Source of the DNA: an uncultured archaeon
Lineage (GTDB): Archaea > Thermoproteota > Nitrososphaeria > Nitrososphaerales > Gagatemarchaeaceae
Direction of reading: 5' to 3'
Assembly: GCA_963817525.1 (NCBI GenBank)
Contig: CAWFOU010000007.1
Location: 1,024,001-1,088,000, forward strand
Length of the DNA: 64,000 nt
The position numbers and the translations under genes were made by a program. Below are positions 12,713 through 57,274 of this stretch, piece by piece; within the stretch, counting starts at the first letter, position 1, and every line of letters begins with the position of its first letter. Under the pieces are notes generated by a model. The model was not told the DNA's origin and did no database searches. It saw only the letters and a program-made list of their open reading frames with translations.

Positions 12713-13654
12713 TCAGCCCTTGCTCGGCTTCAGCCGCTTCTCGGGGGCACCAACGATGCCGCGGACGGCGAGCTCCCTCAGGATTTCCTTGGAGTCGCTC
12801 CCCCTCCCTACAGCGCTCCTGAGCATGGCCTCCCCGGCCTTGGACTCCCCGTTCCTCAGCATCCCCAGGGCGAACCAGAGCCTGAGCTCCGCGCTCTCCG
12901 GGGACAGGGAGATCGCCTTGGAGAACTCCCTCCCTCCCTTCGCGAGGTCCCCCCTGGCGAGAAGCTCCTCCCCGCTCGCGGCGTGGCCGTAGGCCTCCTG
13001 GACCTTGAGCATGGCCTTCAGCTCCCTGAGCGGGCTGTCGCTGCTATCCACGCGCAGGTCCAGCAGCCTCCCCTCCCAAGGCGTGTTCGTGGGCAAGGCC
13101 GCGACCACCATCACCGCCGCGGACCTCACTGCGCCCCTTGTGGCCTGCCCCCCCGCCTCGAGGGCTGCCACCATCCTCCCCGCCAGGCCCGCCTTGGCGC
13201 CGCGATATGCCGCAGCCACCGACCTCCAGGCCCTCTTCGCGCCCACGAAGTTCGCCTGGACGCAGAACCCCCTGCCCGCCAGGTGGCCTGACTCTGGAAG
13301 GCAGCCCTTCCCTGTGTGTGCCGCAGTCCGCCCCTTCGAGTCCATCATCATCACCTGTCTCACACCCGGTCTGGGGTCGGTGGCGAGCAGGGACTTTAGC
13401 GCCTGGGGCGGGGTCTTCCCTCCCTTCAGGAGGGCCAGCCCCAGGGGGCCGTACGTCGGCTCCACTGTCCCCTGCGCGACGACCACGCCCACCCCTGGCT
13501 CGGTCCAGATGGTCCTCGAGCCGACCGAGAAGGACTGCGAGAGCACCGCGGCGCCCATCTCGCCCGTCCTCCTGTCGAGCGCGACTATCGAAAGTGCCCC
13601 CCCGAGGGGCGTCAGGGTCATCGTGAACTCGGCGCCAACATCGGATAAAAGCAC
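12713..13654 (-). CDS. DUF1028 (Ntn-hydrolase-like) protein with TPR-like tail; start uncertain
   Basis: SIVALD..TGEMGAAV.S..FSVGS, AAHTG..C, LDLRVD. Confidence 0.8.
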   Translation of the reverse strand: MLLSDVGAEFTMTLTPLGGALSIVALDRRTGEMGAAVLSQSFSVGSRTIWTEPGVGVVVAQGTVEPTYGPLGLALLKGGKTPPQALKSLLATDPRPGVRQVMMMDSKGRTAAHTGKGCLPESGHLAGRGFCVQANFVGAKRAWRSVAAAYRGAKAGLAGRMVAALEAGGQATRGAVRSAAVMVVAALPTNTPWEGRLLDLRVDSSDSPLRELKAMLKVQEAYGHAASGEELLARGDLAKGGREFSKAISLSPESAELRLWFALGMLRNGESKAGEAMLRSAVGRGSDSKEILRELAVRGIVGAPEKRLKPSKG

Positions 13655-15254: not shown

Positions 15255-15345
15255 CTACTGGACGTAGACGGCCATCTGCTGCTCGATCTTCCGGAGCCTC
15301 TCGACCCTGTGCGGGAGGGACGGAGGTGTCGAGAGAGCTCGAGCC
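15255..15345 (-). pseudogene. Probable 3' remnant of an HtpX/M48 peptidase gene
   Basis: Reads STPPSLPHRVERLRKIEQQM*, like the M48 C-terminal STHPxxxxRIxxL motif; host-like GC that ends abruptly at the low-GC cassette. Confidence 0.45.
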
Positions 15346-15351
15346 GGCATC

Positions 15352-15399
15352 ATGGCGCCATAATAGTTATTTAGGGCGCCATAAAGAGTGTGGCGCCAT
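15352..15399 (+). promoter_or_regulatory. Promoter with three GGCGCCAT operator-like boxes flanking the TATA box
   Basis: GGCGCCAT at 15354, 15375 and 15392; TTATTTAG at 15367-15374. Confidence 0.65.
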
Positions 15400-15607
15400 G
15401 GTGAAACTGCAGAAACACAAGGCATACACGTATCAGGCCAACGACGGAGAGAAAATCGACCATTACAAGTATTCAATCAACATTCCAGAGAGTGCCATAG
15501 CAGAGCTTGGTTGGGCGGAGGGGCAGGAAATCAATTTGCGAATTGACCAGCATGCGTTGGCGCTTAAAGCCGGCAAGGGCCCTAAGGGGGAGGCGAAAGA
15601 GAAATGA
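15398..15607 (+). CDS. AbrB/MazE-family DNA-binding protein (69 aa)
   Basis: YSINIPESAIAELGWAEGQEINL swapped-hairpin motif; ATGA overlap with next gene. Confidence 0.8.
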   Translation: MVKLQKHKAYTYQANDGEKIDHYKYSINIPESAIAELGWAEGQEINLRIDQHALALKAGKGPKGEAKEK

Positions 15608-16320
15608 CGTTGACGGTGTGCCTTACGGGTAAGGATGGGATTGTGATAGGGTCGGACAGTCGTGGGACCTTTGGCGACCCGCGAGGAGTTACCGCACAAA
15701 ATGATACCATCAAGAAGACGTATCTGGTGGGCGACGTTGGAATCCTGATGGCAGGCGCAACAAATGGCAACATGATAGTTGAAGAGGTTGCGAAAGCAGT
15801 TACGGCAGAGAAAATCCAAGGTGTAACTAAGACGATGGAGAAGGTGCGAGAGATAAGCATGAAGAAATTTGATGAGTGGTTTCCGGGATTTCCATACTTC
15901 GCTGAGCAGGGACAGAATCCTGCATTTCAACGGCCCAACATGCAGTTGACAATCGCAGGATATGATACTGATGATGGTAAGCGGGTTCCACGACTCTACA
16001 GCATGGTAAGCAACTACGCTTTCGCGCCGAACTTGCATGATTTCGGATCTGCTTTGGGTGGCGTTGCCCAATACGCGTTGTACCTGCTGAATCGTCTGCA
16101 TGCTCCTGAAATGGGGGTTGCGAGTCTCAAGCACTTGGCTGCCTACGTGATAACTGAGACCGCCTCCCAAGATGGGAAGGTCGGCGGTCCAGTTCAGTTG
16201 GGAGTAATTCTTCCACAAGGCGGAGCCTACATGCTCACCAAAGAGCAAATAGAAGCAATACTCGTCGAGAACGAGAAAAGCAGCAAAGGCCTTAAGAGTC
16301 TGTTCAACAAGGTAGGATAA
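15604..16320 (+). CDS. Proteasome-subunit-like Ntn hydrolase
   Basis: N-terminal Thr, GIVIGSDSR, KK, ILMAG, IAGYD, DGKVGG. Confidence 0.8.
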   Translation: MTLTVCLTGKDGIVIGSDSRGTFGDPRGVTAQNDTIKKTYLVGDVGILMAGATNGNMIVEEVAKAVTAEKIQGVTKTMEKVREISMKKFDEWFPGFPYFAEQGQNPAFQRPNMQLTIAGYDTDDGKRVPRLYSMVSNYAFAPNLHDFGSALGGVAQYALYLLNRLHAPEMGVASLKHLAAYVITETASQDGKVGGPVQLGVILPQGGAYMLTKEQIEAILVENEKSSKGLKSLFNKVG

Positions 16321-16322
16321 CC

Positions 16323-16508
16323 ATGGAAGTCAGGGTAGTCAAGTCCCCGTTGCCCTACGGCATAGAGAATTTGCCAGAATCCACACAGATGGGGTTTGTG
16401 ACTACGAATATTACACTAGAGAGTGGAATAGTGATTACTAATTCCAACCAGTTTTCCTCCGACGACGACTTTGAAAAGGAAGCCACTGACTACGAAACGG
16501 ATTCCTAA
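16323..16508 (+). CDS. 61-aa protein with acidic C-terminal tail
   Basis: Starts 2 bp after the upstream stop; ends SSDDDFEKEATDYETDS. Confidence 0.55.
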   Translation: MEVRVVKSPLPYGIENLPESTQMGFVTTNITLESGIVITNSNQFSSDDDFEKEATDYETDS

Positions 16509-16699
16509 ATAGTGCGGAATCATCCTATTTTATTCGTAGCTTCGGAAATCCGCGGATGGGAATTGCGACAACCAATCCCGTCGCCGTGCTTGGGATACTC
16601 AGGCAGCCTTCAGCGACCGTTAGTGGTCTCGGCTACTACAGTCATTCTCTACACCAAACCTTTCCAAAAAGGTTAAAGAAATCCTGATGGGGTTTCTCT

Positions 16700-17761: not shown

Positions 17762-17805
17762 AGCCCCTCCCCGGCAAGGGGGAGCATTAAACGCGTTTCA
17801 GCCTT

Positions 17806-19023
17806 GGGTTCTGGTGGGGTCTTCGGGAGATGGGCGCTTATATCTCGAAATCGCCTTTCAAGGGATGGAGTCGGTCAGGGCGATCCGCTTCAGGTACGAG
17901 GCCTCCGAGGAGCTGTCCTCCCTTTTCGAGGAGTTCCGCCTCATGTGCAACGACGCCATCAGGATAGCCTTGAAGGAAGCCCAAGAGCAGGTTCAGGCTC
18001 ATCGAGCTAGCCTACCCCAGGCTCAAGAGTTACGGCCTCCACACCCACTGCATCCTCTCCGCTTGCGAGGTCGCCTATTCCGCCTGCAAGAACCGGAAGA
18101 GAAAGCCCATACCCCGCATCACGAGGCCGTTCATCAAGCTCGACAGCAAGACATACACCCTGAACCACTTAATCGTCAGGATCCCGACGCGGCCAAGGCA
18201 CTTCATCTATCTGACCCTTCACGCGTCCAACTACCACCTTTCCTTCGTCGACGACCCTGCTCTGAAGCGGGGTTCGATCACCCTCACCGACACAGCGCTC
18301 GCGATAGCTTTCACCAAAAAGACCGCCGAGAACAAGCCCCGCGGGAGGATGGGGATAGACGTGAACGAGAGGAATGTGACATGGGCCGACTCGGCAGGGA
18401 CGGTGCGGAAGGAAGACACGTCTGCGGTCGCCGAGCTCAAGGAGAGATACAAGGCGCTCAGGGCGAAGATCGCCGAACGGACGAGCAAGGACAGGCGTAT
18501 ACAGCGCCGGCTCCTCTCGAAGTATGGAAGGCGCGAGAGAGACAGGACTACCCAGGCCCTCCACCGCGTCACAAAGAGGGTCGTCGGGCACGCGAAGGCG
18601 AACGGCCAGGCGATCGTCATGGAGAACCTCAAGGGGATAAGGAAGCTCTATCGCAGAGGGAACGGACAATGACCGTCCTTCAGGGGAAGGATGAACTCGT
18701 GGACGTTCCGCGAGATCCAGCGGCAGATCGAGTACAAGGCGCGATGGGAGGGCGTCCCCGTCCACCACGTCGACCCCAGAGGCACGTCCCGAAAATGCCC
18801 GAAGTGTGGCTCCTCGCTAATGGAAATCGAAGGGCGCCGGCTGATGTGCCCTTCGTGCAAGCTGGTCGAGGATAGGGACGATATAGCCGCGATGAACCTG
18901 ATGGCCTGCGAGGTTCCGCAGGCTCGGCCTGGCGGGTGAAGCTGTGATGGGGAACGAGACGTCGACTCCAATCCTCGGAGCAGATGCCAGGAAGGCGCGT
19001 CTCACGGAGGCGCACCAGAACCC
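17806..19023 (+). mobile_element. TnpB-only (IS200/605/607-related) element
   Basis: tnpB with no tnpA; GGGTTCTGGTG (17806-17816) and CACCAGAACCC (19013-19023) inverted repeat. Confidence 0.7.
17865..18939 (+). pseudogene. tnpB: RNA-guided endonuclease TnpB, disrupted
   Basis: RuvC GIDVN, IVMENL, DRDDIAAMNL; Zn finger CPKC..CPSC; frameshifts near the 5' end and in-frame TGA at 18670-18672. Confidence 0.9.
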
Positions 19024-21104: not shown

Positions 21105-21179
21105 TGGTGGACCGGAAGGGATTTGAACCCTTGGCCTCTCGCGTGCAAGGCGAGCGTTCTACCGCTGAACTACCGGCCC
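21105..21179 (-). tRNA. tRNA-Ala(TGC), CCA encoded
   Basis: Anticodon arm CTCGC-CTTGCAC-GCGAG; G3:U70 identity pair. Confidence 0.96.
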
Positions 21180-21220
21180 ACAAAAGAAGGGACGTGGGGT
21201 CGCTTCTTATGCTCTTCTCA

Positions 21221-21706
21221 TTATTCTGACGAGGGCCTAACATGGCTCCGCTGGGCGAGCTCTTTGCCATCCTTACGCGTGTAGGGAGGGGCGCCGGGCC
21301 TCACTTTGCCAGTTCTCTCTCCCATGCGGACGAACTCGTTGATCTCCTCTACGAACTCTTCTGCGGTTATTTCGTTCTTTAGGTAGCGAAGAACGGCTAA
21401 TAGCTCTCCTCGCTTTTTCACGGTGTAGTTCACCATTTCTTCAGCCATTCGAATTACAGATGGACTTTGCGAAATGACCAGGTGCCAAGTATTGAAGCTC
21501 TCTTTCTTCCTCACCGCTCCACACATGATGCCTCTTTGAATCAGAAATTTCCGAATCATTTCAAGGTGCGGCTTCCAATTCTCATCGAAGGCGATTCTGA
21601 TTTCGATTGTGAATACATGTACGTTCACTTCGACCGTGCCGTCTCCGTCGAAGTATCCTGCGAGTTCCCTCCACCCCTTGTATGCGCGGTCAGCATTCCC
21701 GTGAAT
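21221..21706 (-). CDS. Single-motif LAGLIDADG homing-endonuclease-like protein; start uncertain
   Basis: Frame of ORF 21221-21628 stays open upstream and reads YKGWRELAGYFDGDGTVEV; TVKKRGEL motif downstream. Confidence 0.75.
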   Translation of the reverse strand: MHGNADRAYKGWRELAGYFDGDGTVEVNVHVFTIEIRIAFDENWKPHLEMIRKFLIQRGIMCGAVRKKESFNTWHLVISQSPSVIRMAEEMVNYTVKKRGELLAVLRYLKNEITAEEFVEEINEFVRMGERTGKVRPGAPPYTRKDGKELAQRSHVRPSSE

Positions 21707-21842
21707 CGATGATTCCTTATTGGCTTCCGTACTCTAACAGTTCGTCGCCCCTAATAACCGCCTCCGTGAAGTCCATGTCGAAAATCGGCATCCTTCGTAC
21801 TCCTTACATTTATAGAAGCATGAATATTTCGGGTGGCCTTGC

Positions 21843-21917
21843 GGGCCGGTAGCTCAGCTTGGCTAGAGCACTCGACTGATAATCGAGAGGTCGAGGGTTC
21901 GAATCCCTTCCGGCCCA
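21843..21917 (+). tRNA. tRNA-Ile(GAT)
   Basis: Anticodon arm CTCGA-CTGATAA-TCGAG; GGTTCGAATCC T-arm. Confidence 0.96.
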
Positions 21918-21987
21918 TCATATTATCCAGATGGAACCTCCCCCTGTTAAAGCCGAATTCTGACTTTTCGGGAGGTGACAACGACAA

Positions 21988-22290
21988 TTGAGGAGGCTCA
22001 GCCTGGTTCAATCGCCCTACTACCACTACCTTCAGGAGGATGACAACTTCCGGAGGTGGGTCGAGTCTCTCGAAAGGGGGTCGATCACCACAGCGGCAGT
22101 CTACTTCCGAAGGATCGGGTTCCTCTCCTCGAAGCTCAAGGTCGAGCCGAGACAGATTGCGGCAATGAACACTAGGGAGGCAAGAGACTTCATCCACGAC
22201 ACAATCTCCTATCTCGAGACATCGGGCAACGTCGGCTCTTCGATAGAGAGCTACATCAAGGCGGTCAAGAGCTGGATGACTTGGAACGAC
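21988..22290 (+). pseudogene. N-terminal fragment of a tyrosine recombinase/integrase
   Basis: FRRWVESLERGS.TTA.VY.R ... YIKAVKSW core-binding-domain pattern next to the tRNA; no catalytic domain. Confidence 0.7.
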
Positions 22291-23381
22291 TCGAGGACTT
22301 CGCAATGAACTCGACTCAGTACGCCTTGGCTGTCGCTGGTCTAAATTCAAGTTTTCAGGGATTCAATAACGATTGGACGCTTAGTGAGGCTACCTGCACA
22401 ATTTCGTGGCATGATGCCACCGCCAGCTTTCTCGTCACGAATGCGCACGACGTCAAATACATCCTAACCGTGGCAGAGAATCCTTTGGAAGGCATCATCT
22501 ACAATGTGGCCTTGGACGGAGTCTTCGTTGCCAGTATCGCGCAGACCAACTCTGAGACATATTCGGGATACGCAGTTGCTGACAGCTCTACTCCCACTTC
22601 AAATCCGGTTGACTACGCAAGTTCCACTTGGTACGCACCTTCGGTCGAAGTTCCCTCGGATCCATCGCCTTATTCGAGTCCCAGCTGCAAGTGGACTGGT
22701 AGCGATAGTAGCACAGAGTGCATTGTAGAATTTTGGACAGGACTACAGAATAGTACTTACGATGGACCCAATCATATCCCCGCTCATACTGGCGAAGTTG
22801 TTCAGACCGGAACATTCGGCAATGAAACATGTGGGTACCAGGTTGGTGGGGCCTATGGCTGCACTAGTGTGTACAAAGACTGGAGCGAGTACGTAAGAGG
22901 ATATTCAAACGGAAACGCAAGCCCCGATGGGCCGTACTACTGTTACCCATCTCCGGGAGAAGGAGATGAAGTCGTAGGCCAGGTCGGCTCCAAGTTGTAT
23001 TTTAACGACACCTCAAGCAACTACACCTACACAATACTAACTGACTACGGTTCTCCTAATACCACGATCTGCTCGCACTTCTATAACAATGGAGAAGTGC
23101 ATACCGAGTATTACGCCGACTACTTCGCCGAGACACCGCAATATGGTTCTTCCTTCTTCACTCTGCCAGAGTTCACCAGCCCGACTACATTCTACGATTG
23201 CGGCATGGCTACAGGCCAGACCGAATTTGGAGCCTACCCCAACTATAGCAATGGCTATGGATTCGGATCTTACATATACAACAGCGATACAACAAACACA
23301 GATACAGGTACGATGTATGAAAATAGCGGAAGTACATACGGGTATTTCGGTGTCACTTGGGTCAACAGTTACGGCACCTGA
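22281..23381 (+). CDS. G1 (glutamic) peptidase-like protein, 5'-truncated
   Basis: YSGY, WYAPSV, FWTGL, VVQTGT, GEGDEV, FAETP, LPEF; no signal peptide. Confidence 0.65.
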   Translation: MERLEDFAMNSTQYALAVAGLNSSFQGFNNDWTLSEATCTISWHDATASFLVTNAHDVKYILTVAENPLEGIIYNVALDGVFVASIAQTNSETYSGYAVADSSTPTSNPVDYASSTWYAPSVEVPSDPSPYSSPSCKWTGSDSSTECIVEFWTGLQNSTYDGPNHIPAHTGEVVQTGTFGNETCGYQVGGAYGCTSVYKDWSEYVRGYSNGNASPDGPYYCYPSPGEGDEVVGQVGSKLYFNDTSSNYTYTILTDYGSPNTTICSHFYNNGEVHTEYYADYFAETPQYGSSFFTLPEFTSPTTFYDCGMATGQTEFGAYPNYSNGYGFGSYIYNSDTTNTDTGTMYENSGSTYGYFGVTWVNSYGT

Positions 23382-23476
23382 TGTCATCGTTTAGCGAGGG
23401 TCGCCACCGGCTTCGAAACGAGAACAATTATCCCAAAGGATGATATTATACTCTCCCCTAGCAACTCAACCTCGGT

Positions 23477-23995
23477 GTGAACATGGATGACAGCGGAGGT
23501 CGGACCCGTGTCCTAATCACTATGGGTGCGGGCCTTGTCATTGTGGTGCTCTTGCTTGTTCAGGGAATCGGTGGAACAGGTGCCTACGGCCAGAGAACGT
23601 CCATCGCAGCTAGTCCAACGAACGCGACGAGCAGCAACGTGACACCGAACCCAGAACGCATGTACAACGTGACTTTCTATGATGCTTCACATCCCCCGGG
23701 GTGCTACTACGCGCAGTGGGCTGTTGAAATGGCTAACCTGAACAAGACAGAATCAACAATGTCTCCGTCTGGCGCCTCACGGGACGAAGGGGGAAGTTCA
23801 GCAAATGCCTCCGTTCCAGAGAGCGTAACGTTCTCCGTACCGAGCGGCGTCTACAACTTCACCCTATACCCAACTGCCTGGATACGATACGTTAGCGTCC
23901 CCGGCTCTGATTTTGCTGCGGGCCCTACAGGAGGAGTAACGGTAACGAATTCCGACGTGACAATTGACGTGCTCACGGGCGGCATTTGCGGATAG
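23477..23995 (+). CDS. Membrane-anchored extracellular protein
   Basis: N-terminal TM, Ser/Thr linker, YNVTF ... FSVPSGVYNFT beta domain. Confidence 0.7.
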   Translation: MNMDDSGGRTRVLITMGAGLVIVVLLLVQGIGGTGAYGQRTSIAASPTNATSSNVTPNPERMYNVTFYDASHPPGCYYAQWAVEMANLNKTESTMSPSGASRDEGGSSANASVPESVTFSVPSGVYNFTLYPTAWIRYVSVPGSDFAAGPTGGVTVTNSDVTIDVLTGGICG

Positions 23996-24034
23996 TCAAT
24001 AGTCGGCCTAGGTGGGGGCTGCGCTAAACGTTGG

Positions 24035-24831
24035 TGCGGACCCCTGCTCTTTAGAGACACTCCGTAACAGCATAATATCGGGGCAGGAGGTGAGCCCCTA
24101 GCATGCCCGGGAGGAGCCGCTGGACCAGCGAGGAGAAGATACTCATCGTGATGGAGTCGCTGAACACCAACATCTCGCTGGCGGAGCTGTGCCGCAAGTA
24201 CAACCTGAACCCGGGCGTCTTCCGCTACTGGAAGGAGAGGTTCGTCCACTCGGGCAAGCTCGGCCTCTCCGGCTCGTCGGCCAAGGACCCGGTCAGGGAC
24301 AAGGAGGCGGAGATCAACCGGCTCAAGAAGCTCATCGGGAGCTCACCATCGCCAACGAGGCGATGAAGGAGGTCCTGAGGGGGGAGGGGAAAAAATGAGC
24401 GTGACGATCATGATGCGCAAGGGGTTGAGCCTGAGGAAGAGCCTCTCCATCGTAGGAGCCTCTCGAGGCTCGTACTACTACAAGGCCAGACGTGCGCGGA
24501 GCGACAGGGGCAGGCTACGCGACCCGTCGATGCTCACGCCGATCAAGGAGCTCGCGATGAGGAAGCCGGTGTATGGCTCGAGGATGCTAGCGGCCAGGCT
24601 CTCGAAGGAGCTGGGCAGGCCGGTGAACAGGAAGCTGGTCCAGCACGCGTTCCGGATGATGGGCTGGACGATCCCGCAGATGACAAAGAAGCAGCTCATC
24701 GGAGCGGCCCACAAGAAGCCGAAGCCCACCGCGATAGACCAGGACTGGGAGGCAGACTTCACCTACGTCTGGTGCGGCGTCGACAGGTGGTGCTACCTGT
24801 TCAACGTGCTGGACATCTTCTCGAGGGAGTG
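24035..24831 (+). mobile_element. Truncated IS3-family element (orfA + partial orfB)
   Basis: Left end TGCGGACCCCTG..AGACAC; orfA HTH (WTSEEK..ELCRKY); G4A6 slippery run at 24386-24395; orfB YGSRML, WEADFTY, LDIFSRE then break. Confidence 0.85.
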
Positions 24832-24835
24832 TCGG

Positions 24836-25303
24836 ATGGAAAGAGAAGCGAAGCGTCGGCACGTCACGCTGAATTCTCTCATCAACGCGATTCTCGCAAA
24901 ATACGACTCATTCGACAAGATTTTGGAAGGGACGAAAGCAATCCCGTTGAGCGGGGCGTTCGTCGCAGAACTCCTGGAGATCGCCTCGATAGAGCAGATG
25001 GAGAACATCGCAAAGAAGCTGGGCGCGAAGGTAGTGAGACAGAGCTTCGCCTCTCAAGGCATAGAATTCAACCTTGACAATCTGATAGAGTCCTACTTCG
25101 AGCCTCTTTCAGAGTATTCGGGCTGGTACCAGTTCGATTGGCGCCTTGCAGGCACGAGTCGCAAGCTGATCTTCACGCACTCGCACGGCGCGAAGTGGAC
25201 GGCGTTCTTGAGACGGTACTATGCCGCCATAATACGCTCGGCCACGGGAGTCGAGCCTGACGTCACATTTGAGGACGGGGTACTCACTTTCACGTGCAGA
25301 TAG
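24836..25303 (+). CDS. RHH-like regulator remnant fused in frame to IS3 orfB
   Basis: EAKRRHVTLNSLINAIL helix pair and HSHGAKWTAFL; abrupt switch from transposase sequence. Confidence 0.55.
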   Translation: MEREAKRRHVTLNSLINAILAKYDSFDKILEGTKAIPLSGAFVAELLEIASIEQMENIAKKLGAKVVRQSFASQGIEFNLDNLIESYFEPLSEYSGWYQFDWRLAGTSRKLIFTHSHGAKWTAFLRRYYAAIIRSATGVEPDVTFEDGVLTFTCR

Positions 25304-25457
25304 GGGAAATCCAAACACTCCGGACCCGATTGCGACGGCGAGAGTGGCGACGTACTTGCGTTCTAGATAAAGAGGACGCTACAAAATATCCAAAATACTA
25401 TCTTGTATCGTCTTGTGGCACACCAGGATAAATACATGAGTTCTCCATGATTAATTC

Positions 25458-26687
25458 ATGCGCATTCGAGGATCGGAAGGTCTGGCACAAAGAAGGATAC
25501 TGCGTGTTCTCGAAGTTTCACTGCTTTTATTTGTGCTTGTTATTGCGTCACCACTGCTAGTGGTGACAAATGCTCAACCTGCTCCGCAGAGCGGGAGCCA
25601 AGCCTGCGCGAATCAAATTGCATCACAGGAACATACAATGCTCGCGGGGGTAAATTCGACAGAAGCTGAGGAAGTAGCGGAACAGTCGCCGCAGTTTCAT
25701 TCAAGCATAGCAGGGCAGAGTTATCAATTCAGGACTGTTTCAGCAGATTTTTCTCTCAACGCTGCTACATGTAGCGTTGCGAAGATTGGTGAACTATCGG
25801 TAGATTTCAGTCTGCCTGGAGTAACCATCAAGAATGGGAACTACACCGTTCCAGAAGGAGTACAGGTGTGGGAAAATCCTACAATGAGTCAGGTTCTGGG
25901 TACTAACGTATCCGATACCATAGCAGGAATTAGCACTTGGTCAGGTTACGAGGTGTACTATCCGGTCAGTGGGGTTAAGCAGGCTCTGCTGGACAGCCAA
26001 GTTTACTACTATCAGCCATCGATTAGTTCCAACTCTCTTTGTACTTATACACCCTACACGTGCAGCTTGCTAATTTGGAGTGGCTTGTCTAACGGTGCGG
26101 GCGGCAGCGGAGGCCTTCTCCAATCAGGAACTGCTGCCAACATAGATTGTCCAAGCGGTACATGCGGCTCAGCAACATATGTCGCGTTTTGGGAATTTCT
26201 CCTTCCTGGCCCCACCCAGCCTTACCCCTATTATCCCTGTTCCACGAGCTCCTACAAGGTCAGCACGGGCGACGAAATCACCCCTGTGGAAGAGAATGGG
26301 TTATACTGGAGCGGCGGGACTGGCAGTCAGTGGGAATCCTATATAATTGACTGGACAGCCAATGGGGGAAGCGGCTGGTCATGCGCAAGCGGTGTTCTGA
26401 CCTACGCTTCAACGGCGTACTATTCACAGACAATGCTCGAGGATCCAACCGTTGGTTCTACAGCAAACACTCTCGCAGTATTCTACAACGTTGGGGCTAT
26501 CGATTCCGAAATCTGCATATCGACTTCCAGCTGCTACTTCGACGGTACACCGTATGGTAACGGTGACTACAATCCGTACCCCATGGTAAACAATTGCAGC
26601 AATGTTCCTACTACGGACATAACCCTTGGTACCATGAACAGTGTTGGTGACTTTACATCCACATACGTGACCAATTGCGGGACCTAG
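25458..26687 (+). CDS. Secreted G1 (glutamic) peptidase-like protein with prodomain
   Basis: Signal/TM; WSGY, IWSGL, LLQSGT, AFWEF, VSTGDEI, MLEDP; many Cys. Confidence 0.7.
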   Translation: MRIRGSEGLAQRRILRVLEVSLLLFVLVIASPLLVVTNAQPAPQSGSQACANQIASQEHTMLAGVNSTEAEEVAEQSPQFHSSIAGQSYQFRTVSADFSLNAATCSVAKIGELSVDFSLPGVTIKNGNYTVPEGVQVWENPTMSQVLGTNVSDTIAGISTWSGYEVYYPVSGVKQALLDSQVYYYQPSISSNSLCTYTPYTCSLLIWSGLSNGAGGSGGLLQSGTAANIDCPSGTCGSATYVAFWEFLLPGPTQPYPYYPCSTSSYKVSTGDEITPVEENGLYWSGGTGSQWESYIIDWTANGGSGWSCASGVLTYASTAYYSQTMLEDPTVGSTANTLAVFYNVGAIDSEICISTSSCYFDGTPYGNGDYNPYPMVNNCSNVPTTDITLGTMNSVGDFTSTYVTNCGT

Positions 26688-26752
26688 CATCATAGAGCAT
26701 CGGGCAAAACTTTTTTTATCCGGAATAGCTCTCATAAATTGAGGGCTTCTCC

Positions 26753-27490
26753 TTGACAATGAAGACCGAGACTAGGAGAATCGCAATCGTCATAACGGTG
26801 GTTGTCGTGATTTTGATTGCGGCGGTCGCCTTCTCTAGGCTAAGTTCTACTACTGGCAGCTCTTCATCGACTTATATTTCGTCAAACTCGGAACTCTACT
26901 CAACATCCTCGTCGACCACTTCGCAACTAGGTCTCCAACTCATTGCGTCCATAAACTCTTCTTCAATCACAGTGGGTAAGAATCTGAGCGTTTCGATCTC
27001 ACTCTTGAATACTCTTCCGACTGTCAACGCTGTTCCAGCATCCAATACCTGGGCATTCCAAGGAGTGGCCGTTAACCTGTGGGGCGTGTGCTTCGGTGAA
27101 TATCCAGTGGAGGTCGCGGTACTCAAAGGCAACTACACGGCCCAAGAACTCCCATCAGTCGCTAATTCAACATTCGCATATACGTGCGCAGCATTCATCC
27201 AACTCAACCAGGTTATCTTTCACCCGAGCAGCGAAGAAGCGAACGTCACGGGGGTGGGCCCAGGACCTGGGGTGGATCAGACTCTCGGACCTTTTCACCT
27301 TGCGCTTAATTTCACGACTAGCGGTTACTGGGACCTGCAGAGCCTTTCGGAGCAACAGAACTTACCGCTCTTGTCGCCTGGAGGAGCCCTAAACCTAACG
27401 AGTACCAAGTTCGTTCCCGGGACATACACCGTCGCCGTTGCTGATGAGTGGGGACAGATGCAAATACTCCACTTTACCGTGACGGCTTGA
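26753..27490 (+). CDS. Membrane-anchored extracellular protein
   Basis: N-terminal TM, Ser/Thr linker, PGTYTVAVADEWGQ C-terminal motif. Confidence 0.75.
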   Translation: MTMKTETRRIAIVITVVVVILIAAVAFSRLSSTTGSSSSTYISSNSELYSTSSSTTSQLGLQLIASINSSSITVGKNLSVSISLLNTLPTVNAVPASNTWAFQGVAVNLWGVCFGEYPVEVAVLKGNYTAQELPSVANSTFAYTCAAFIQLNQVIFHPSSEEANVTGVGPGPGVDQTLGPFHLALNFTTSGYWDLQSLSEQQNLPLLSPGGALNLTSTKFVPGTYTVAVADEWGQMQILHFTVTA

Positions 27491-28108
27491 CCTGATGAAC
27501 CATCTGTCATTCCTAGCAGGCTTGCGTCTTTCTTTCTATGATAGCGGACCACTCGAGAAGGATATTCGAGCTCACCCCACGGGGCATTTGCCTAAGCTCG
27601 CGGTAAAGCCAGCCGCTGCCTCCGCCGAACGACATTGTATGGATCTCAGGGAGGCGCGCCTAAAACCATCTGGCAAATAGGCGGTTTTTACAACCCTCCC
27701 ATTGGATTCGCTTAAAACATCAATTGCATCCCTTCCGGCCCATTCCTAGCAAGGTCAGAATATGTTGCGTTTGACTAATGAAGCTAGAAACGCGCTAATC
27801 TGGGTCAGCATTCCCCGCCACACGGGGCCTATATTTTTGGGCAGACGGTAACGATGAGCGGGCCCGACGGGGTCAGTTTGGCTTATTTTCTCAGCCTGGC
27901 ATTGAATTGCAACAATTGGTTGGGTGGCGAGCTTCGACCAGGATACTTTCGTCTTGAGGATTTGAATTGAGGCTGCCAAAGGAACCTCTCAGCAAAATCA
28001 CGGGGAATCAGCTCCGTTGACTCGCTATAGGGAATTGCTCGCAACGACCAGCACGCCTCAGCTCCTGGAGCGCCAAGGCACCGAGGCTTGACGCTGTCGA
28101 TGAAAGTC

Positions 28109-40919: not shown

Positions 40920-41711
40920 ATGAACGGACGCAGCGGGGGCTTCGGGAGGAGCCTGGCAGTCCCCCTCCACGGGGTCTCCTTCATCGGCCTGGCAGTCCTG
41001 ACCTCCTTCTTCGCCTACCTGTGGGGCTCGACCTCCCCCAACCCCGCGGAGCTCCTAGCGCCCGCCCTGTTCTGGTACGCGGTCGCCTTCCTTCTCTTCG
41101 CGTACCCCCTCCGGGGGGCCTTCGAGCTGTTCACCAGGTACATCAGGACGGCCTTCGGGGCCGGGGTCTTCGCCCTCTATCTCGTCGCGCACGTCCTCCT
41201 CTACGGTTTCATGCTGGAGAGCATACTCGTCTCGTTCTTCGACCGCCCGTTCGTCTCGGCCACGACCAGCGTCTATGTGACGACGTCGGTCTTCGCCCCG
41301 CCGTCGCTCCTGAACTCTCTCGCCGGCCTCTGGTTCAACCCATGGGTCACCCTGACCGTCCCTCCGCTCTTCAGCGACGCGCTCAGCCTGTACAGCGTGG
41401 TGGTCGCAGTCATCATCGCGGTCCTCATCGTCGCGAACATCGGCAAGACCCGCGAGCTGGGCAAGGCCTGTTCGACGCGGCTAAGATCGCGGACCATGGT
41501 CGTCTTCCCCGCCCTCGGCATAGCCCTGGGCGCGTCGTGCTGCCTGAGCGTCCCGATACTCTTCACCATCGCGGCGCCCTCCGCGATCGCCCTGAGCTCC
41601 TCCCTGTGGCTCTACGACGCCACCTACTTCCTCTTCCCTCCGTTCGCCATCGTCCTGCTGTACCTCAACCTCTACTCCGTCGACAAGATAGTTGCCAGGG
41701 TGGCGCAGTAG
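40920..41711 (+). CDS. Membrane protein with GASCCLS motif (paralog A)
   Basis: About 6 TM; ANIGKTRELG and LGASCCLSV. Confidence 0.75.
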   Translation: MNGRSGGFGRSLAVPLHGVSFIGLAVLTSFFAYLWGSTSPNPAELLAPALFWYAVAFLLFAYPLRGAFELFTRYIRTAFGAGVFALYLVAHVLLYGFMLESILVSFFDRPFVSATTSVYVTTSVFAPPSLLNSLAGLWFNPWVTLTVPPLFSDALSLYSVVVAVIIAVLIVANIGKTRELGKACSTRLRSRTMVVFPALGIALGASCCLSVPILFTIAAPSAIALSSSLWLYDATYFLFPPFAIVLLYLNLYSVDKIVARVAQ

Positions 41712-45404: not shown

Positions 45405-46190
45405 TCAGACGTTCGCAGGGAGCCTGCGCATGGAGCGCAGGTTCAGGTATAGCACCGCCACAGCGATGCACGGGAAGAGGAAGTAGGTGACGTAGTAGAT
45501 CCAGGGCGAGGAAGTCAACACCGCGGCCGCCGGCGCGGCGAGGCTGATGAGCCCCGCCACGGACAGGCAGCACGAAGCGCCCAAGACGATGCCCACTGCA
45601 GGGAGCACGACGAACGCCCTCGCCTTGTTCGTCCCCGTCCGGAGCTTGCCGAGTTCCCTGGTCCTGCCGATGTTGGCGACGACGAGGACGGCGATGACGA
45701 GAGCGACGGCGATGCTGTAGAAGCTCAGCGCCGCAGAGAATATGGGCGGCGCGGTCAGCACGATTATCGGGTTGTACGCGATGTCGAACGCGACGCTCAC
45801 AGGGGACGGCGGGCTGAAGAGGTTCGTCGTGACGAACAATCCGGCCGTGGCCGCGAAGGCGCCTATCCCGTAGTAGGAGGCGAGGATGACGTCGAAGAGG
45901 AAGCCGTAGAGCAACAGGTGTATCGATATGTAGACGACGAACGCCGCCGCGCCGAGGGTGGTCCGGATGGACTTTGCGAACTCCCGGGCGGCGTCGCGAA
46001 ACGGGATGGCGAGCAGGAAGAAGACCGCGGCGACCCAGAAGACGGCCGGGCCGGCGACCTCGTCCACGTTGAGGGAGACCTCTCCGAGGGAATAGCCTAG
46101 GCCTACCAGCGCCGTGCCCATCACGGCGACGACGAGCGCGGAGATGGCCGGGCCGCGCCTGCTGGCCCTCAGGTGGCTCGCTTCGTCCAT
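45405..46190 (-). CDS. Membrane protein with GASCCLS motif (paralog B)
   Basis: ANIGRTRELG and LGASCCLSV; colinear with 40920-41711. Confidence 0.75.
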   Translation of the reverse strand: MDEASHLRASRRGPAISALVVAVMGTALVGLGYSLGEVSLNVDEVAGPAVFWVAAVFFLLAIPFRDAAREFAKSIRTTLGAAAFVVYISIHLLLYGFLFDVILASYYGIGAFAATAGLFVTTNLFSPPSPVSVAFDIAYNPIIVLTAPPIFSAALSFYSIAVALVIAVLVVANIGRTRELGKLRTGTNKARAFVVLPAVGIVLGASCCLSVAGLISLAAPAAAVLTSSPWIYYVTYFLFPCIAVAVLYLNLRSMRRLPANV

Positions 46191-46382
46191 GTCTATCGAA
46201 ACCCTTACCGTGTAGACATAAGGCTTTGCGGGCGCCGCGGGCCGAGCGCGACATCGAGGTCTCCCCTGAAATCGATTAAATACGAACGCGCCTGGGAATC
46301 CGACGTGTCTCGGCACGCGGGCGCGTCGTTTGGGAGGGGGCAGAACAGCGTCATCGCCGCCGAGACAAGGAGAGCGTAATCG

Positions 46383-46832
46383 ATGTCATCATCGTCGCTG
46401 GGCACGAGAGGCTTCACCAGGATCATCGTGGCCGTGGATGGCTCAGAGGTCTCCCTCAGGGCCGCCGAGCACGCGACGCGAATCGCCAAGCAGGACGGCG
46501 CTGAGCTGGTCGCCCTCCACGTCGTGCCGGTCCCTCCCTTCGAGGTGAAGGGGGACCTCGCCGATATCTACGCGAGCGCAAGAAGGGACGCGAAGAAGTG
46601 GATGAAGGACGTGGAGGATATTGCGACGAGGAGCGGGATCGGCGTAAAGACAGAGGTAGTCGTCGGCGCGTACTCCGTGGTCGACGCGATTCTGGGATAT
46701 GCGGAGACGGTCAAGGCTGACCTCATCGTCACGGGGACTCGGGGGACGACTCCCTCGAGGAGGATGCTCGTCGGGAGCGTGGCCGACGGATTGGTCGAGT
46801 ACGCCGCATGCGCCGTCCTCGTCATACGCTGA
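46383..46832 (+). CDS. Universal stress protein
   Basis: IIVAVDGSE, DLIVTGTRG, LVGSVA..LV..A.CAVLVIR. Confidence 0.95.
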   Translation: MSSSSLGTRGFTRIIVAVDGSEVSLRAAEHATRIAKQDGAELVALHVVPVPPFEVKGDLADIYASARRDAKKWMKDVEDIATRSGIGVKTEVVVGAYSVVDAILGYAETVKADLIVTGTRGTTPSRRMLVGSVADGLVEYAACAVLVIR

Positions 46833-46856
46833 GCAGGGTCCGGATAGCGCTCCAAC

Positions 46857-48475
46857 TTGGCAGTAGCTAGGCTAGTCAGGGTGAGGCTGGAAGCGCCCAG
46901 GGGCGATGTGGGGGTGCTCCTCGCGGAGCTCATAAAATTCGCGGAGTTCCACCCCTCGAGGAGCCAGGGGATGGTGCAGGACATCGGCATACTCCTCCTG
47001 GCCTCGGAGGCCCAGGACATCTACACCAAGGCCGGCGACCTGCTCAGCAGCAAGAGCGGGGTGAGGACCGCGGAGGGCAAGAAGAAGGAGGTGGAGAGGT
47101 TCGAAGCCCACGACATCGAAGGCCTGCTAAAAGTGCTGGAGGAATACCTCGGCACGATCGAGGGGAACCTGTCGCTCTTCAAGGAAGAGAAGGACAAGCT
47201 CGGGGTCACCGAGGTACTCCTCGCCATCCAAGAGGCCTCGCTGATGGTGTTCACCGACCTGCAGAGGATATTCGTCTACCCCCTCGACGGAGGGAGGCTG
47301 AGGCTCGAGGGGTTCGTCCCCGCGCACTCTCTCGGGTCGTTCAGAAACTCCCTGGGCAGCTACCTGGTCTCCGAGGAGCCGGTCAAGACGCAGGGCAAGG
47401 AGGTGGCCTACGTCCCGACCCTCCTCGTGAACCCTCGGCTCGTCTCGGTGTTCGAGAGCATAACCCTCATGCGAGGCCTCCCTCGATACGGGGAGGTCGA
47501 CCCAACGCCCATCCTCGCGTTCGTCTTCCCCTTCTTCTTCGGAATAATGTTCGCCGACGTGGGCCACGGGATTGCCCTCCTCGCCCTCGGCCTGTACCTG
47601 GTCTACCGGACCGCCTACAAGTCTTGGGGGAAGCAGATCATCGTCTTGAGCTTCTCCACGGCCCTTTTCGGCTTCATCAGGGGGTCGTTCTTCGGCGTCG
47701 TGTTCACCTCGCCCCTGGAAGAGTTTCGTCAAGCTCCCGCAAGGCCATCACCGCGGGTTTCACTCTCTCCTCGATCCCGTTCCTCTTGGAGGTCGCGATA
47801 GCGATAGGCACCTTCCACCTCGCGAGCGCGTACGCCATCGCCTTCGTCAACCAGGAGAGGGCCGGAAACTACCTGGACGCCTTCCTCGACAGGCTGCCTA
47901 CCGTCGTGCTGTACTGCTTCCTCGTGCCGCTCGGCCTCGCCGCGGCCGGGACCATCCTCGACCTCGGCGCCCTCTTCACGAGCAGCGCGCCCACGCCCCT
48001 CTTCAACGACCTTCTCGGGCTGGACATCCCGGTCTCCGCGACCGCGCGCCTCTGCGTCCCTGTCGTCTTGGGCGCGCTGCTAGTGCTCGTCGCGGGGGAG
48101 CCCATTCGCGAATACCTGCCCACCCGGAAGTGGAGGAGCGCGGTCAGGGGGCTGGGCGCGGGACTTCTGCAAGGGGTGGCGAAGCCCTTCGAGTTCTTCG
48201 TGAACACCCTGAGCTATGTCAGGCTCGGAGTCCTGCTGATCACGACCACGCTGCTGGGGAGCCTGGTCGCGGGCGTCCTGTCGTACGGCGTCGTCGGCAT
48301 AGTCCTGGCGGTCTTCCTCAACATAGCCGTGATGAGCCTGGAGGGCCTGATCGTCTACCTGCAAGACATGAGGCTGCAGCTCTACGAGTGGCTCTCGCAG
48401 TTCTACGCAGGGACGGGTACGCCGTTCACGCCCCTCGTCTCCGGCGGAAGCCACTTCAGCGCAAGCTGGACTTGA
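46857..48475 (+). CDS. A/V-type ATPase subunit I-like protein, frameshifted near 47719-47743
   Basis: PRYGEVDPT, FFGIMFADVGHG, NTLSYVRL, MRLQLYEW; two single-base insertions relative to copy 2. Confidence 0.85.
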
Positions 48476-55077: not shown

Positions 55078-56691
55078 TCAAGTCCACTTGGCGCTGAAGT
55101 GGGCGCCGCCGGAGATGAGGGGCATGAACGGCGTCCCTGTCCCGGCGTAGAACTGTGGAAGCCACTCGTATAGCTGCAGCCTCATGTCCTGCAGGTAGAC
55201 GATCAGGCCCTCCAGGCTCATCACGGCGACGTTGAGGAAGACCGCCAGGATTATGCCGACGACGCCATACGACATCACGCCCGCGACGAGGCTCCCCAGG
55301 AGGGTCGTCGTTATCAACAGGACCCCGAGCCTGACGTAGCTGAGGGTGTTGGTGAAGAACTCGAACGGCTTCGCCACCCCTCCGAGGAGGCCCGCGCCGA
55401 GCCCCCTGACGGCGCTCTTCCACTTGCGGGTCGACAGGTAGTCGCGTATCGGCTCCCCCACGATGAGGACGGCCAGCGCGACCAGGACGACCGGAAGGGA
55501 GACGCGCGCGGTCTCGTAGACGGGGATGTCAATCCCGAGGAGGCCGTTGAAAAGGGGCGTAGGCGCGCTGCTGGTAAAGAGCACGCCAAAGTCGAGGGCC
55601 GTCCCGGCCACGGCGAGCCCCAGGGGCACCAGGAACACGTAGAGCACCACCGTGGGCAGCCTGTCCAGGAGTGCATCCAGATAGTTTCCGGCCCTCTCCT
55701 GGTTGATGAAGCCTATGGCGTAGGCGCTCGCGAGGTGGAAGGCGCCTATGGCTATCGCGACCTCGAGCAGGAACGGGATGGAAGAGAGGGTGAATGCCGC
55801 CGTGATCTCTTGGGGGAGCTTGACGACGCTCTCCAGGGGCGAGGTGAACACCACCCCGAAGATCAACCCCCTGACGAAGCCGAAGAGGGCCGCCGAGAAG
55901 CTCAGGACGAGGAGCTGCTTGCCCCACGACTTGTAGGCCGTCCGATAGATGAGGTACAGGCCCACCGCGAGGAGCGCGATCCCGTGCCCCACGTCGGCGA
56001 ACATTATGCCGAAGAAGAACGGGAAGACGAACGCGAGGATGGGGGTGGGGTCGACCTCCCCATACCGGGGGAGGCCCCGCATGAGGGTTATGCTCTCGAA
56101 GACGGAGACCAGCCGGGGGTTCACCAGGAGCGTCGGGATGTACGCCACCTCTTTGCCCTGCGTCTTGACGGGCTCGGCCGAGACAACGTAGCTGCCCAGG
56201 GATGCCCTGAACGACTCGAGTGAGTGCGCGGGGAGGAACCCCTCGAACGCCAGCCTCCCTCCATCGAGAGGGTACACGAAGATCCTCTGCAGGTCAGTGA
56301 ACACCATCAGCGACGCCTCCGGGATTGCCAGCAGGACCTCGGTGACCCCCAGCTTGTCCTTCTCCTGCTTGAAGAGCGACAGGTTCCTCTCTATGGTGCC
56401 GAGGTAGTCCTGCAGCCCTTTGAGCAGCCCTTCGATGTCGTGGGCCTCGAACCTCTCCACCTCCTTCTTCTTGCCCTCTGCGGCCCTCACTCCCCCCTTG
56501 CTCAGCAGGTCGCCGGCCCTGGTGTAGATGTCCTGCGCCTCCGACGCAAGCAGGAGTATCCCTATGTCCTGCACCATTCCCTTGCTCCTCGAGGGATGGA
56601 ACTCGGTGAACTTGATGAGCTTCGCGAGCATCACGCCGACCTCCGTCCTGGGCGCTTCCAGCCTCGCCCTGACGAGTCTAGCTACTGCCAA
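55078..56691 (-). CDS. A/V-type ATPase subunit I-like protein (intact, 537 aa)
   Basis: PRYGEVDPT, FFGIMFADVGHG, NTLSYVRL (essential Arg), FYAGTGTPF. Confidence 0.88.
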   Translation of the reverse strand: MAVARLVRARLEAPRTEVGVMLAKLIKFTEFHPSRSKGMVQDIGILLLASEAQDIYTRAGDLLSKGGVRAAEGKKKEVERFEAHDIEGLLKGLQDYLGTIERNLSLFKQEKDKLGVTEVLLAIPEASLMVFTDLQRIFVYPLDGGRLAFEGFLPAHSLESFRASLGSYVVSAEPVKTQGKEVAYIPTLLVNPRLVSVFESITLMRGLPRYGEVDPTPILAFVFPFFFGIMFADVGHGIALLAVGLYLIYRTAYKSWGKQLLVLSFSAALFGFVRGLIFGVVFTSPLESVVKLPQEITAAFTLSSIPFLLEVAIAIGAFHLASAYAIGFINQERAGNYLDALLDRLPTVVLYVFLVPLGLAVAGTALDFGVLFTSSAPTPLFNGLLGIDIPVYETARVSLPVVLVALAVLIVGEPIRDYLSTRKWKSAVRGLGAGLLGGVAKPFEFFTNTLSYVRLGVLLITTTLLGSLVAGVMSYGVVGIILAVFLNVAVMSLEGLIVYLQDMRLQLYEWLPQFYAGTGTPFMPLISGGAHFSAKWT

Positions 56692-56710
56692 GTTGGAGCG
56701 CTATCCGGAC

Positions 56711-57160
56711 TCAGCGTATCACAAGGACCGCGCAGGCCGCGTACTCGACGAGGCCGGCCGCCACGCTCCCCACGAGCATCCTCCTCGAGGGGGTCGTCCC
56801 CCGGGTCCCCGTCACAATTAGGTCGGCCTTCACCGTCTCCGCGTAGCCGAGTATCGCGTCGACGACGGAGTAGGCGCCCACGACGACCTCGGTCTTCACC
56901 CCGATCCCGCTCCTCGTCGCTATCTCCTCGACGTCCTTCATCCACTTCTTCGCGTCCCTCCTCGCGCTCGCGTAGATCTCTGCAAGGTCGCCCTTCACCT
57001 CGAACGGAGGGACGGGCACGACGTGGAGCGCGACCAGCTCCGCCCCGTCCTGCCTTGCGATGCGCGCCGCGTGCTCGGCCGCCCGAAGAGAGACCTCCGA
57101 CCCGTCCACGGCCACGATTAGTCTGGTGAAGCCTCTCTTGGTCGACGAGGACGATGACAT
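56711..57160 (-). CDS. Universal stress protein (copy 2)
   Basis: Nearly identical protein to 46383-46832. Confidence 0.95.
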   Translation of the reverse strand: MSSSSSTKRGFTRLIVAVDGSEVSLRAAEHAARIARQDGAELVALHVVPVPPFEVKGDLAEIYASARRDAKKWMKDVEEIATRSGIGVKTEVVVGAYSVVDAILGYAETVKADLIVTGTRGTTPSRRMLVGSVAAGLVEYAACAVLVIR

Positions 57161-57274
57161 GGAGCTACTCCTGCCGTCTCGCGGCGTCGACCGCGCTGGT
57201 CGATCGTCTTTCTTCCCGCGCCCACACCTGCGCAGACACGTCCGGTTCTCTGGCGCTTTCGTATTTAATCAATT

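Follow-up and report, generated by a model that had tools for sequence, protein, structure and literature searches.

A propeptide-less proteasome homologue paired with a conserved microprotein: a candidate toxin–antitoxin-like module of archaea and bacteria

Introduction

What does a solitary proteasome-family protein do when it is encoded between a putative regulator and a microprotein? This question is raised by a 64,000-nt stretch of DNA, called the window here, from an uncultured archaeon of the Gagatemarchaeaceae (assembly GCA_963817525.1, contig CAWFOU010000007.1, positions 1,024,001–1,088,000). Three open reading frames (ORFs) lie in tandem on its forward strand. ORF1 (15398–15607, +) encodes 69 aa and is a probable AbrB/MazE-type autorepressor, which is regarded as an accessory part. 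ORF2 (15604–16320, +) encodes a propeptide-less N-terminal nucleophile (Ntn) enzyme of the proteasome family, 238 aa in length, which resembles the Widespread Proteasome Homolog (WPH)/group II proteins. ORF3 (16323–16508, +) encodes a microprotein of 61 aa from a conserved but unnamed family. ORF1 and ORF2 share an ATGA overlap at 15604–15607, and the gap between ORF2 and ORF3 is 2 bp.

The initial annotation of this locus read the three genes as an undescribed, mobile module of the toxin–antitoxin (TA) or defence type, in which the 61-aa protein would be the substrate, a tag or an inhibitor of the enzyme. In 2021, Fuchs, Alva and Lupas catalogued 22 further proteasome homologues, WPH among them (PMC8665760). 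In the sections of that paper available, the partners and functions of these homologues are not known and its authors report having found no telling gene context. As described below, the pairing of enzyme and microprotein is real and apparently unreported: no paper tying a proteasome homologue to a microprotein, a TA system or phage defence was found in a search outside which most subscription papers lay.

The Enzyme and the Microprotein Form a Conserved Pair

The family to which ORF3 belongs comprises proteins of 55–85 aa that are missed by annotation. A scan of GTDB genomes yielded 44 loci with enzymes 28–52% identical to ORF2, one of which (L044) is a doubtful partial match, and a partner profile was seeded on six loci, the window never being included. 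A small ORF matching this profile lies directly 3' of the enzyme gene in 26 of the 44 loci, from many phyla (E<1e-3 among 343 candidate frames), and the window-free profile recovers ORF3 itself at E=1e-7 among the 343 candidates. A protein search added 39 further members, one of which is 69% identical to ORF3. Where starts were curated, 19 of 21 copies overlap the enzyme stop codon and the other two lie within 16 nt of it. Synonymous exceeds non-synonymous divergence in all eight close pairs, with dN/dS of 0.27–0.34 in the four that are unsaturated, and these codon comparisons place the family under purifying selection. The recurrence, the stop-codon overlaps and the selection bear out the earlier view of the small ORF as a real, conserved and coupled partner.

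In a tree of 37 enzymes, from which eight broken or partial loci were excluded, the partner is restricted to one clade (starred). It is detected by profile in 24 of the 29 rows of this clade and in none of the eight rows outside it. Four more rows of the clade (L010, L021, L026 and L029) carry a divergent small ORF recognised by eye or by motif scan, and L023 is the sole row without a partner. Residues that mark the partner-bearing enzymes include G21, F23, A31 and Q32, in a hairpin that we take to line the substrate cleft, as in beta subunits generally. The distances among enzymes and among their partners co-vary (rho 0.36, 0/5000 permutations), a signal that kinship alone could yield.

The microprotein has a simple architecture. 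Motif A consists of two hydrophobic residues, any residue, a small residue and the invariant Pro9, and the segment ahead of Pro9 is short and variable. It is followed by a hairpin with an invariant Gly35, a second, similar Pro element and a variable tail. Among 56 members, Pro9 and Gly35 are present in 56, Leu32 in 55, Phe44 in 54 and the second Pro in 51, and position 39 of the hairpin is Thr or Ser in 56 of 56. For ORF3 alone, only this short hairpin is predicted (pTM 0.33). The 56 members match no Pfam family at a useful E value, and ORF3 has no PDB match under E 0.24 and no atlas match. ORF3 was also considered as a fragment of the enzyme and was rejected, there being no profile similarity between the two. 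Fusions of the microprotein to the enzyme or to any other protein are absent from 269 fetched homologues; none was seen in longer proteins either, where the search amounts to weak evidence.

Several enzyme copies depart from this pattern. Six of the 44 (L024, L027, L032, L034, L038 and L041) are broken by a stop, frameshifts or 5' loss, and in L027, L032 and L038 a frameshifted enzyme is accompanied by an intact small ORF, which fits toxin decay and also assembly error. Behind Patescibacteria enzyme copies lies a different ORF of 60–63 aa (L014:6752–6934 and L024:6771–6962). The two are similar to each other, the one of them that was searched has no Pfam match, and they possibly represent a second, unrelated partner family. 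In addition, a subgroup of enzymes (L023:6001–6879, P0130, P0191, P0197 and P0213) has a C-terminal extension of 50–70 aa ending in Trp, which might stand in for the microprotein that L023 has lost.

Does the microprotein bind the enzyme? When ORF3 was predicted together with three copies of ORF2, the complex scored 0.53 and the best of three controls scored 0.00; contacts agree between runs to at least 34% and the partner has a pLDDT of at least 38. Of 157 solved complexes, 116 reach the mark applied, as do 2 of 215 mismatches, and at scores up to 0.60 stand only 18 of the 157 solved complexes together with both mismatches, in a calibration from which this job differs. Co-prediction with the 61-aa protein, as the initial annotation had advised, thus lends mild support to ORF2–ORF3 binding and yields no interface. 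Because genetic coupling had already made binding likely, ORF3 is considered to be a probable ligand of ORF2.

ORF2 Retains One Catalytic Triad and Has Lost Most of the Other

ORF2 matches the Pfam Proteasome family (PF00227) at 34.1 bits, above the cut-off of 22.4, and its best sequence matches are archaeal beta subunits. Its relatives number 801 among 1351 candidates (E≤0.001) and 944 among 50% representatives; the nearest are 57–85% identical, and the family occurs in several bacterial phyla as well as in archaea. The protein begins Met-Thr-strand, without a propeptide and without an N-terminal extension, and the apparent extensions of homologues mostly look like early start calls ahead of Met-Thr-Leu. 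Thr2, Asp18, Lys38 and Gly51 align with Thr1, Asp17, Lys33 and Gly47 of beta subunits, as had been recognised for the first three. In the 206 near-full-length proteins among the 269 homologues, Thr (176 proteins) or Ser (20) occupies position 2 in 196, Asp18 is kept in 205, Lys38 in all 206 and Gly51 in 204. The first catalytic triad is conserved.

In the second triad, Ser129 and Ser169 are replaced, as was also stated earlier, and the Asp166 equivalent is retained as Asp190 (180/206). The position of Ser129 is occupied by Gly153 in a gapless register or by Val154 in a gapped one, and that of Ser169 by Val193 in 203 of the 206 proteins. In proteasomes, efficient proteolysis depends on Ser129 and Asp166, by which the Thr1 amine is protonated, according to the part of the source available (PMC4792962). 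As these residues serve efficient proteolysis and both serines are lost, a general degrading protease is unlikely.

The missing residues bear on what the microprotein might do. ORF3 could be an assembly or activating cofactor, that is, a propeptide in trans or a small structural subunit, without which the ring or active site of a stress or defence peptidase would be incomplete. Such a cofactor would account equally well for the coupling, the co-divergence and the weakly supported binding, and the partner could supply the lost Ser129/Ser169 functions, perhaps through the Thr/Ser39 found in every member. Beta propeptides help in assembly (PMC8665760, in the sections available), and the enzyme is without one. 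L023, a single case, has lost its partner, lies on a long branch and is changed at F23 and L159. However, the outer-clade enzymes manage without an ORF3-type partner, and no fusion of the small domain to the enzyme or to anything else was found, whereas some members might be expected to carry a split propeptide in fused form. On balance, a cofactor is somewhat unlikely.

Structural Placement of ORF2 Among Proteasome Homologues

The AlphaFold model of ORF2 (pLDDT 93.6) shows a complete beta-type fold in which H1–H2 are kept (helices 55–68 and 74–92). These are followed by a non-helical loop of 20 residues (93–112), and the C-terminal helix spans residues 213–235. Originally, this helix had been described as alpha-subunit-like; instead, 213–220 aligns with the helix of archaeal beta subunits, beyond which it runs on to 235. 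Heptad positions 216, 219/220, 223, 230 and 234 are conserved as hydrophobic residues or Asn, from which a coiled coil is inferred. Compared by structure, the model gives Z scores of 22–23 with beta subunits and Anbu, 18.4 with HslV, 16–17 with BPH and 12.9 with connectase. A broad family profile matches archaeal beta subunits at E 3e-17, archaeal alpha subunits at E 4e-13 and Anbu at E 8e-12.

ORF2 has the fold, the equivalents of Thr1, Asp17, Lys33, Gly47 and Asp166, and the start of the C-terminal helix in common with PsmB. It was rejected as PsmB since it scores 24.5 bits against a cut-off of 224 with TIGR03634 and has an incomplete second triad, in keeping with the initial annotation, which had set it apart from ordinary PsmB. 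Unlike PsmB, its family is without Ser129 and Ser169, is horizontally spread and has no alpha or ATPase gene recurring alongside. The proposal that ORF2 is an ordinary or decaying extra beta subunit, followed by a chance ORF, accounts for archaeal beta subunits being the best sequence matches. It is very improbable, however, because the score is far under the PsmB cut-off, the 801 relatives form a tight family of their own that extends to bacterial phyla, and ORF3 is conserved and under selection. A proteasome alpha subunit was likewise rejected: the H0 extension is absent and the catalytic Thr1 position is present at the Met-Thr-strand start.

Anbu is closer in organisation. Like ORF2 it is propeptide-less, with Met removal exposing Thr1, and has a long C-terminal helix H5; the two superimpose with Z 22.4 and an rmsd of 3.4 over 207 aligned residues. 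The heptads of the ORF2 helix recall the coiled coil described for Anbu in the available part of PMC5666114. In contrast to Anbu, the ORF2 family carries a microprotein partner, and it is no closer to Anbu than to beta subunits. The genes of the Anbu operon (transglutaminase, ATP-grasp ligase and alpha-E) do not recur as neighbours in the 44 loci. A transglutaminase-like gene directly 5' of the broken enzyme copy in L024 (4646–5938) is their sole echo.

Two other assignments were rejected. HslV and BPH (group I) are compact subunits without S12/H5 that occur in bacteria only, whereas the ORF2 family has H5 and archaeal members (Z 16–18). PHI, like PMI-3 and PMI-4, has a long helical insertion after H2, where ORF2 has its non-helical loop (93–112).

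This leaves WPH, with which ORF2 was compared by described features rather than by sequence. In the sections of PMC8665760 available, WPH is described as lacking a propeptide, having a predicted coiled-coil H5 and resembling both alpha and beta subunits, and it occurs in bacteria and archaea, its spread excluding Firmicutes, Bacteroidetes and cyanobacteria. The ORF2 family agrees in being propeptide-less, in keeping the first triad, in its predicted coiled-coil H5 and in its similarity to alpha and beta subunits. Its distribution is patchy over Actinomycetota, the Planctomycetota–Verrucomicrobiota–Chlamydiota group, other bacteria and archaea, and no Bacillota, Bacteroidota or cyanobacteria are named among the 44 loci. 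It differs in that all 44 loci are from metagenome-assembled genomes, whereas the WPH representative has a RefSeq accession, and in having a microprotein partner and, often, phage or restriction genes nearby, there being no informative genomic context for WPH in the available sections of PMC8665760. Membership of WPH is rather more probable than the alternative, in which ORF2 would belong to a sister group. Thus, the module was rightly called undescribed as regards the pairing, while its enzyme is probably a catalogued yet uncharacterised one, in or beside WPH/group II.

Connectase, a stand-alone, propeptide-less Ntn homologue, raises a different possibility. ORF2 could be a transpeptidase that cuts the microprotein at its small-Pro step, keeps the N-terminal fragment on Thr1 as an amide and transfers it to, or recombines it with, a target, which would be a minimal conjugation system. 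Both systems have a Pro-containing partner motif: connectase acts at an Asp-Pro bond via a Thr1 amide (PMC7980362, as far as available), and the small-Pro step is invariant in the ORF3 family. A weakened Ser129/Asp166 relay makes the Thr1 amine more nucleophilic (PMC4792962, available part), and Ser129 and Ser169 are lost in ORF2. However, ORF2 was rejected as connectase proper, as it keeps H1–H2 and is without the two-helix insertion (Z 12.9, rmsd 3.0, 145 aligned, versus 22–23 for beta subunits and Anbu). The partner of connectase is MtrA and that of ORF2 a co-encoded microprotein, whose piece ahead of Pro9 is short and variable; Asp166 is retained; and no conserved third gene that could be the target is present in the 44 loci. 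We regard ligation of this kind as unlikely.

The Module Spreads Horizontally

That the seven archaeal enzyme copies form one clade is rejected (p-AU 0.008), as is one clade for the four Chloroflexota copies (p-AU 0.001), the groups having been named after the tree was seen. From these tests, the enzyme–microprotein module appears to move horizontally, between bacteria and archaea. GC content of the enzyme gene is below that of its flanks in 32 of 41 loci.

In the window, the three-ORF unit has a GC content of 49.5% compared with 61.3% for the window. GC3 is 0.54–0.61 in the three ORFs and 0.93–0.94 in the flanking purD-like gene (before) and hsp20 (after), the latter matching the archaeal Hsp20 model above its cut-off, in keeping with an archaeal host. 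Based on these differences, the three ORFs are considered foreign to the host genome. The low-GC, three-gene unit with its overlap and 2-bp gap was reproduced on recomputation, with the fall in GC beginning near 15340 rather than at 15255; the insert spans approximately 15340–16690, from the purD-like gene to hsp20. An integrase, an att site and a target duplication were sought at its edges and none was seen, and the flanks have no repeat of ≥7 nt in common.

Neighbouring genes were classified with Pfam: of 312 ORFs called heuristically, 273 were scanned, together with one that was added manually; five partner copies, one shadow ORF and 33 ORFs of L037, L039, L042, L043 and L044 were omitted. 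In addition, 27 neighbours were compared with PHROGs and 46 with PADLOC. Phage or integrase/recombinase genes (terminase, portal, capsid, head-tail, lysin, replisome) lie near 10 of the 26 partner-bearing loci, L013 being counted as phage-type by synteny with L009. Restriction-modification, Mrr, AIPR or HEPN-type genes lie near 6, and as a raw count 13 of the 26 have genes of either kind within 6 kb. L010 lies between a Shedu gene and an integrase, and L014 and L021 lie beside type I-like restriction-modification genes. Four more of the 26 have only an insertion sequence (IS), a TA pair or P63C. IS matches near loci mean little, as the window itself holds three. tRNA genes are near only 5 of 43 loci. 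Together, the rejected clades and the frequent phage or restriction neighbours agree with the mobility claimed in the initial annotation.

Two groups of loci have settings of their own. Close to the Acidobacteriota copies L008, L031 and L040 (also L030 and L038) are transposases of the IS1595 family or small genes typical of their passengers, a hint that IS1595-type elements carry enzyme copies in this phylum. The outer-clade copies L037, L039, L042 and L043, from Omnitrophota/Planctomycetota, are part of a conserved operon, together with a ParA-like gene and conserved small ORFs, and are without the microprotein; this form is possibly domesticated.

ORF1 and its Putative Operator are a Probable Local Addition

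Upstream of the enzyme, the window has a regulatory layout of its own. GGCGCCAT occurs at 15354, 15375 and 15392 and, on the + strand, only once more in the 64 kb, at 52794. An 8-mer present three times within 50 nt is found at just two places in the window, the other being a 9-nt tandem at 40780. Operator-like box 1 (15352–15361) is a perfect palindrome, ATGGCGCCAT, that contains GGCGCCAT; box 2 spans 15375–15382; and box 3 (15392–15399) overlaps, and ends in, the ORF1 start codon. A TATA-like element, TTATTTA (15367–15373, +), lies between boxes 1 and 2, approximately 28 nt 5' of the ORF1 start, so that the three boxes around a TATA described at the outset are in place. This spacing is presumably compatible with a leaderless archaeal transcript. 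Boxes that flank TTATTTA and cover the ORF1 start would suit an autorepressed leaderless promoter, with ORF1 as the putative binding protein.

ORF1 scores 12.7 bits against the Pfam MazE model (PF04014), below its cut-off of 24.7 (E=0.13), and matches phrog_661 at E=2e-4. The AbrB label given earlier is therefore retained as probable, on weak matches. ORF1 has no PDB match and no plasmid match, and phage matches only at E 0.7–0.9. Related loci are without it: no ORF1 homologue was found in the 44 by phmmer over 3287 ORFs or by tblastn, and the GGCGCCAT box is absent within 600 nt upstream of the enzyme in all of them. The initial annotation expected a conserved triad and named homologues unlinked to AbrB and the small ORF as evidence against it; the first of these two links is missing in all 44 loci. 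Therefore, the conserved unit is two genes, enzyme and microprotein, and ORF1 with its boxes looks like a local addition.

Nevertheless, a three-gene TA module in which the AbrB protein is an obligatory core part, possibly the antitoxin, has points in its favour. In the window, the ATGA overlap, the common low GC3 and the three boxes join ORF1 to the other two genes. AbrB/MazE proteins partner several toxin families (PMC2701414, available part), and the 44 loci are only 28–52% identical to ORF2, relatives of 57–85% identity, among which a three-gene archaeal subtype is conceivable, lying outside the set. Against these stand the 44 loci themselves, and of 274 neighbours scanned, the only one to match Pfam MazE is part of a separate PIN pair, in L001. 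In several loci, moreover, promoter-like sequence is seen by eye immediately ahead of the enzyme; sigma-70 and terminator scans gave counts at chance level. An obligatory triad is accordingly quite improbable.

Other Features of the Window

Another Ntn-fold family, DUF1028, is represented at 12713–13654 (−), 2 kb from the cassette, which is probably coincidence. A fragmented TnpB-like gene lies at 17800–18940 (+). A second low-GC region (21105–28000) surrounds tRNA-Ala and tRNA-Ile and holds an IS3 remnant; its ORFs at 21221–21628, 21988–22308, 22281–23381 and 26972–27490 have no Pfam match, and by eye the one at 21988–22308 resembles the front part of an integrase. An inverted 2.2-kb duplication (46270–48475 and 55078–57274, 84.5% identity) includes a gene for Usp and another, resembling V-ATPase subunit I, which is split in one copy. 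There is also a 0.3-kb inverted paralogous stretch (41379–41671 and 45439–45731, 70% identity).

Discussion

How might the pair work? Our preferred reading, held tentatively and at somewhat less than even confidence, is that ORF2 is a Thr peptidase of narrow specificity, kept inactive by a microprotein that acts as a Pro-containing pseudosubstrate, and that the two are TA-like defence cargo. ORF2 would lose Met1, exposing Thr1 as the nucleophile of a narrow-specificity peptidase, and would probably dimerise or stack through its long C-terminal helix in the manner of Anbu. Translational coupling would supply ORF3 at about 1:1, and ORF3, having little fold of its own, would bind the enzyme. Its hydrophobic-hydrophobic-x-small-Pro elements may occupy the substrate cleft such that Pro follows the bond that would otherwise be cut, making it a poorly cleavable pseudosubstrate. 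Of the roles of substrate, tag and inhibitor first offered for it, that of inhibitor is favoured. If the microprotein were lost or displaced, by virus infection or loss of the element, the freed enzyme would cleave a particular protein, of the host or of the virus, and so bring the cell to arrest, and the module would serve prophages and islands as TA-like defence or addiction cargo. In the archaeon of the window, an AbrB-type gene and three operator boxes would have been added upstream as autorepressor, as the microprotein is without a DNA-binding part.

This proposal draws on known systems. A small, coupled partner on mobile DNA that is poorly folded and evolves faster than the conserved enzyme ahead of it looks like an antitoxin next to its toxin and, as in type II TA systems, two coupled genes, one of them small, are co-inherited and horizontally spread. 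Three-component type II systems (omega-epsilon-zeta; paaR-paaA-parE with a separate regulator) likewise place a regulator and a toxin in the same autoregulated operon as a small partner that neutralises the toxin, but here the ORF1 regulator is not conserved across loci. The PI31/Fub1 inhibitors provide a functional analogy, of logic and not of ancestry. In the part of the source available, the P1' residue that PI31 presents to the beta2 site is Pro and PI31 is resistant to cleavage, and it too is a poorly folded partner whose Pro elements could fill active sites (PMC10319324). In contrast to ORF3, PI31/Fub1 is eukaryotic and much larger, and no sequence relation between them is shown. A proteasome-fold toxin was not found in the literature searched. 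Stated more broadly, bacteria and archaea may share a minimal immune or addiction module of proteasome fold that needs no ATP, in which a microprotein serves the Thr1 enzyme as inhibitor or tag; this is put forward with caution and reserve.

A number of observations weigh against the pseudosubstrate proposal. The count of 13 in 26 for phage or restriction neighbours stands without a genome-matched background, and 9 of the 26 partner-bearing loci are without a mobile or defence marker, six of these being on <9 kb of DNA. Searches of 50,697 phage and 72,556 plasmid records gave no match to ORF2, and the three ORFs have none in PADLOC 2.0 at E≤1e-5 (2023 library). Partner-less enzymes exist, namely the eight outer rows and L023 inside the clade, and the Omnitrophota/Planctomycetota copies sit in a conserved, ordinary-looking operon; as a result, the free enzyme fold is not always harmful. 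The loss of Ser129 and Ser169 sits uneasily with a peptidase, the second triad being needed for efficient proteolysis (PMC4792962, available part), and Anbu showed no activity on standard substrates in the part of PMC5666114 available. The ORF3 of the window itself has Ser at the second Pro position and Thr at a conserved Tyr. Finally, as the complex run defined no interface, its placement in the cleft is ours.

What the pairing offers is a foothold. With the microprotein, one widespread lineage of the catalogued homologues gains a concrete partner for binding, a possible substrate motif and a biological setting as prophage/defence cargo. Should the proposal hold, TA and defence systems would gain a new toxin chemistry and a group II homologue besides Anbu would gain its first function, with the microprotein as a prokaryotic counterpart of PI31-type inhibitors or as a transferable tag. 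As the module consists of two small genes, it is directly testable in a laboratory strain. If borne out, it would bear on how the regulation of proteasome-like enzymes began, or would provide a second sequence-specific ligase after connectase.

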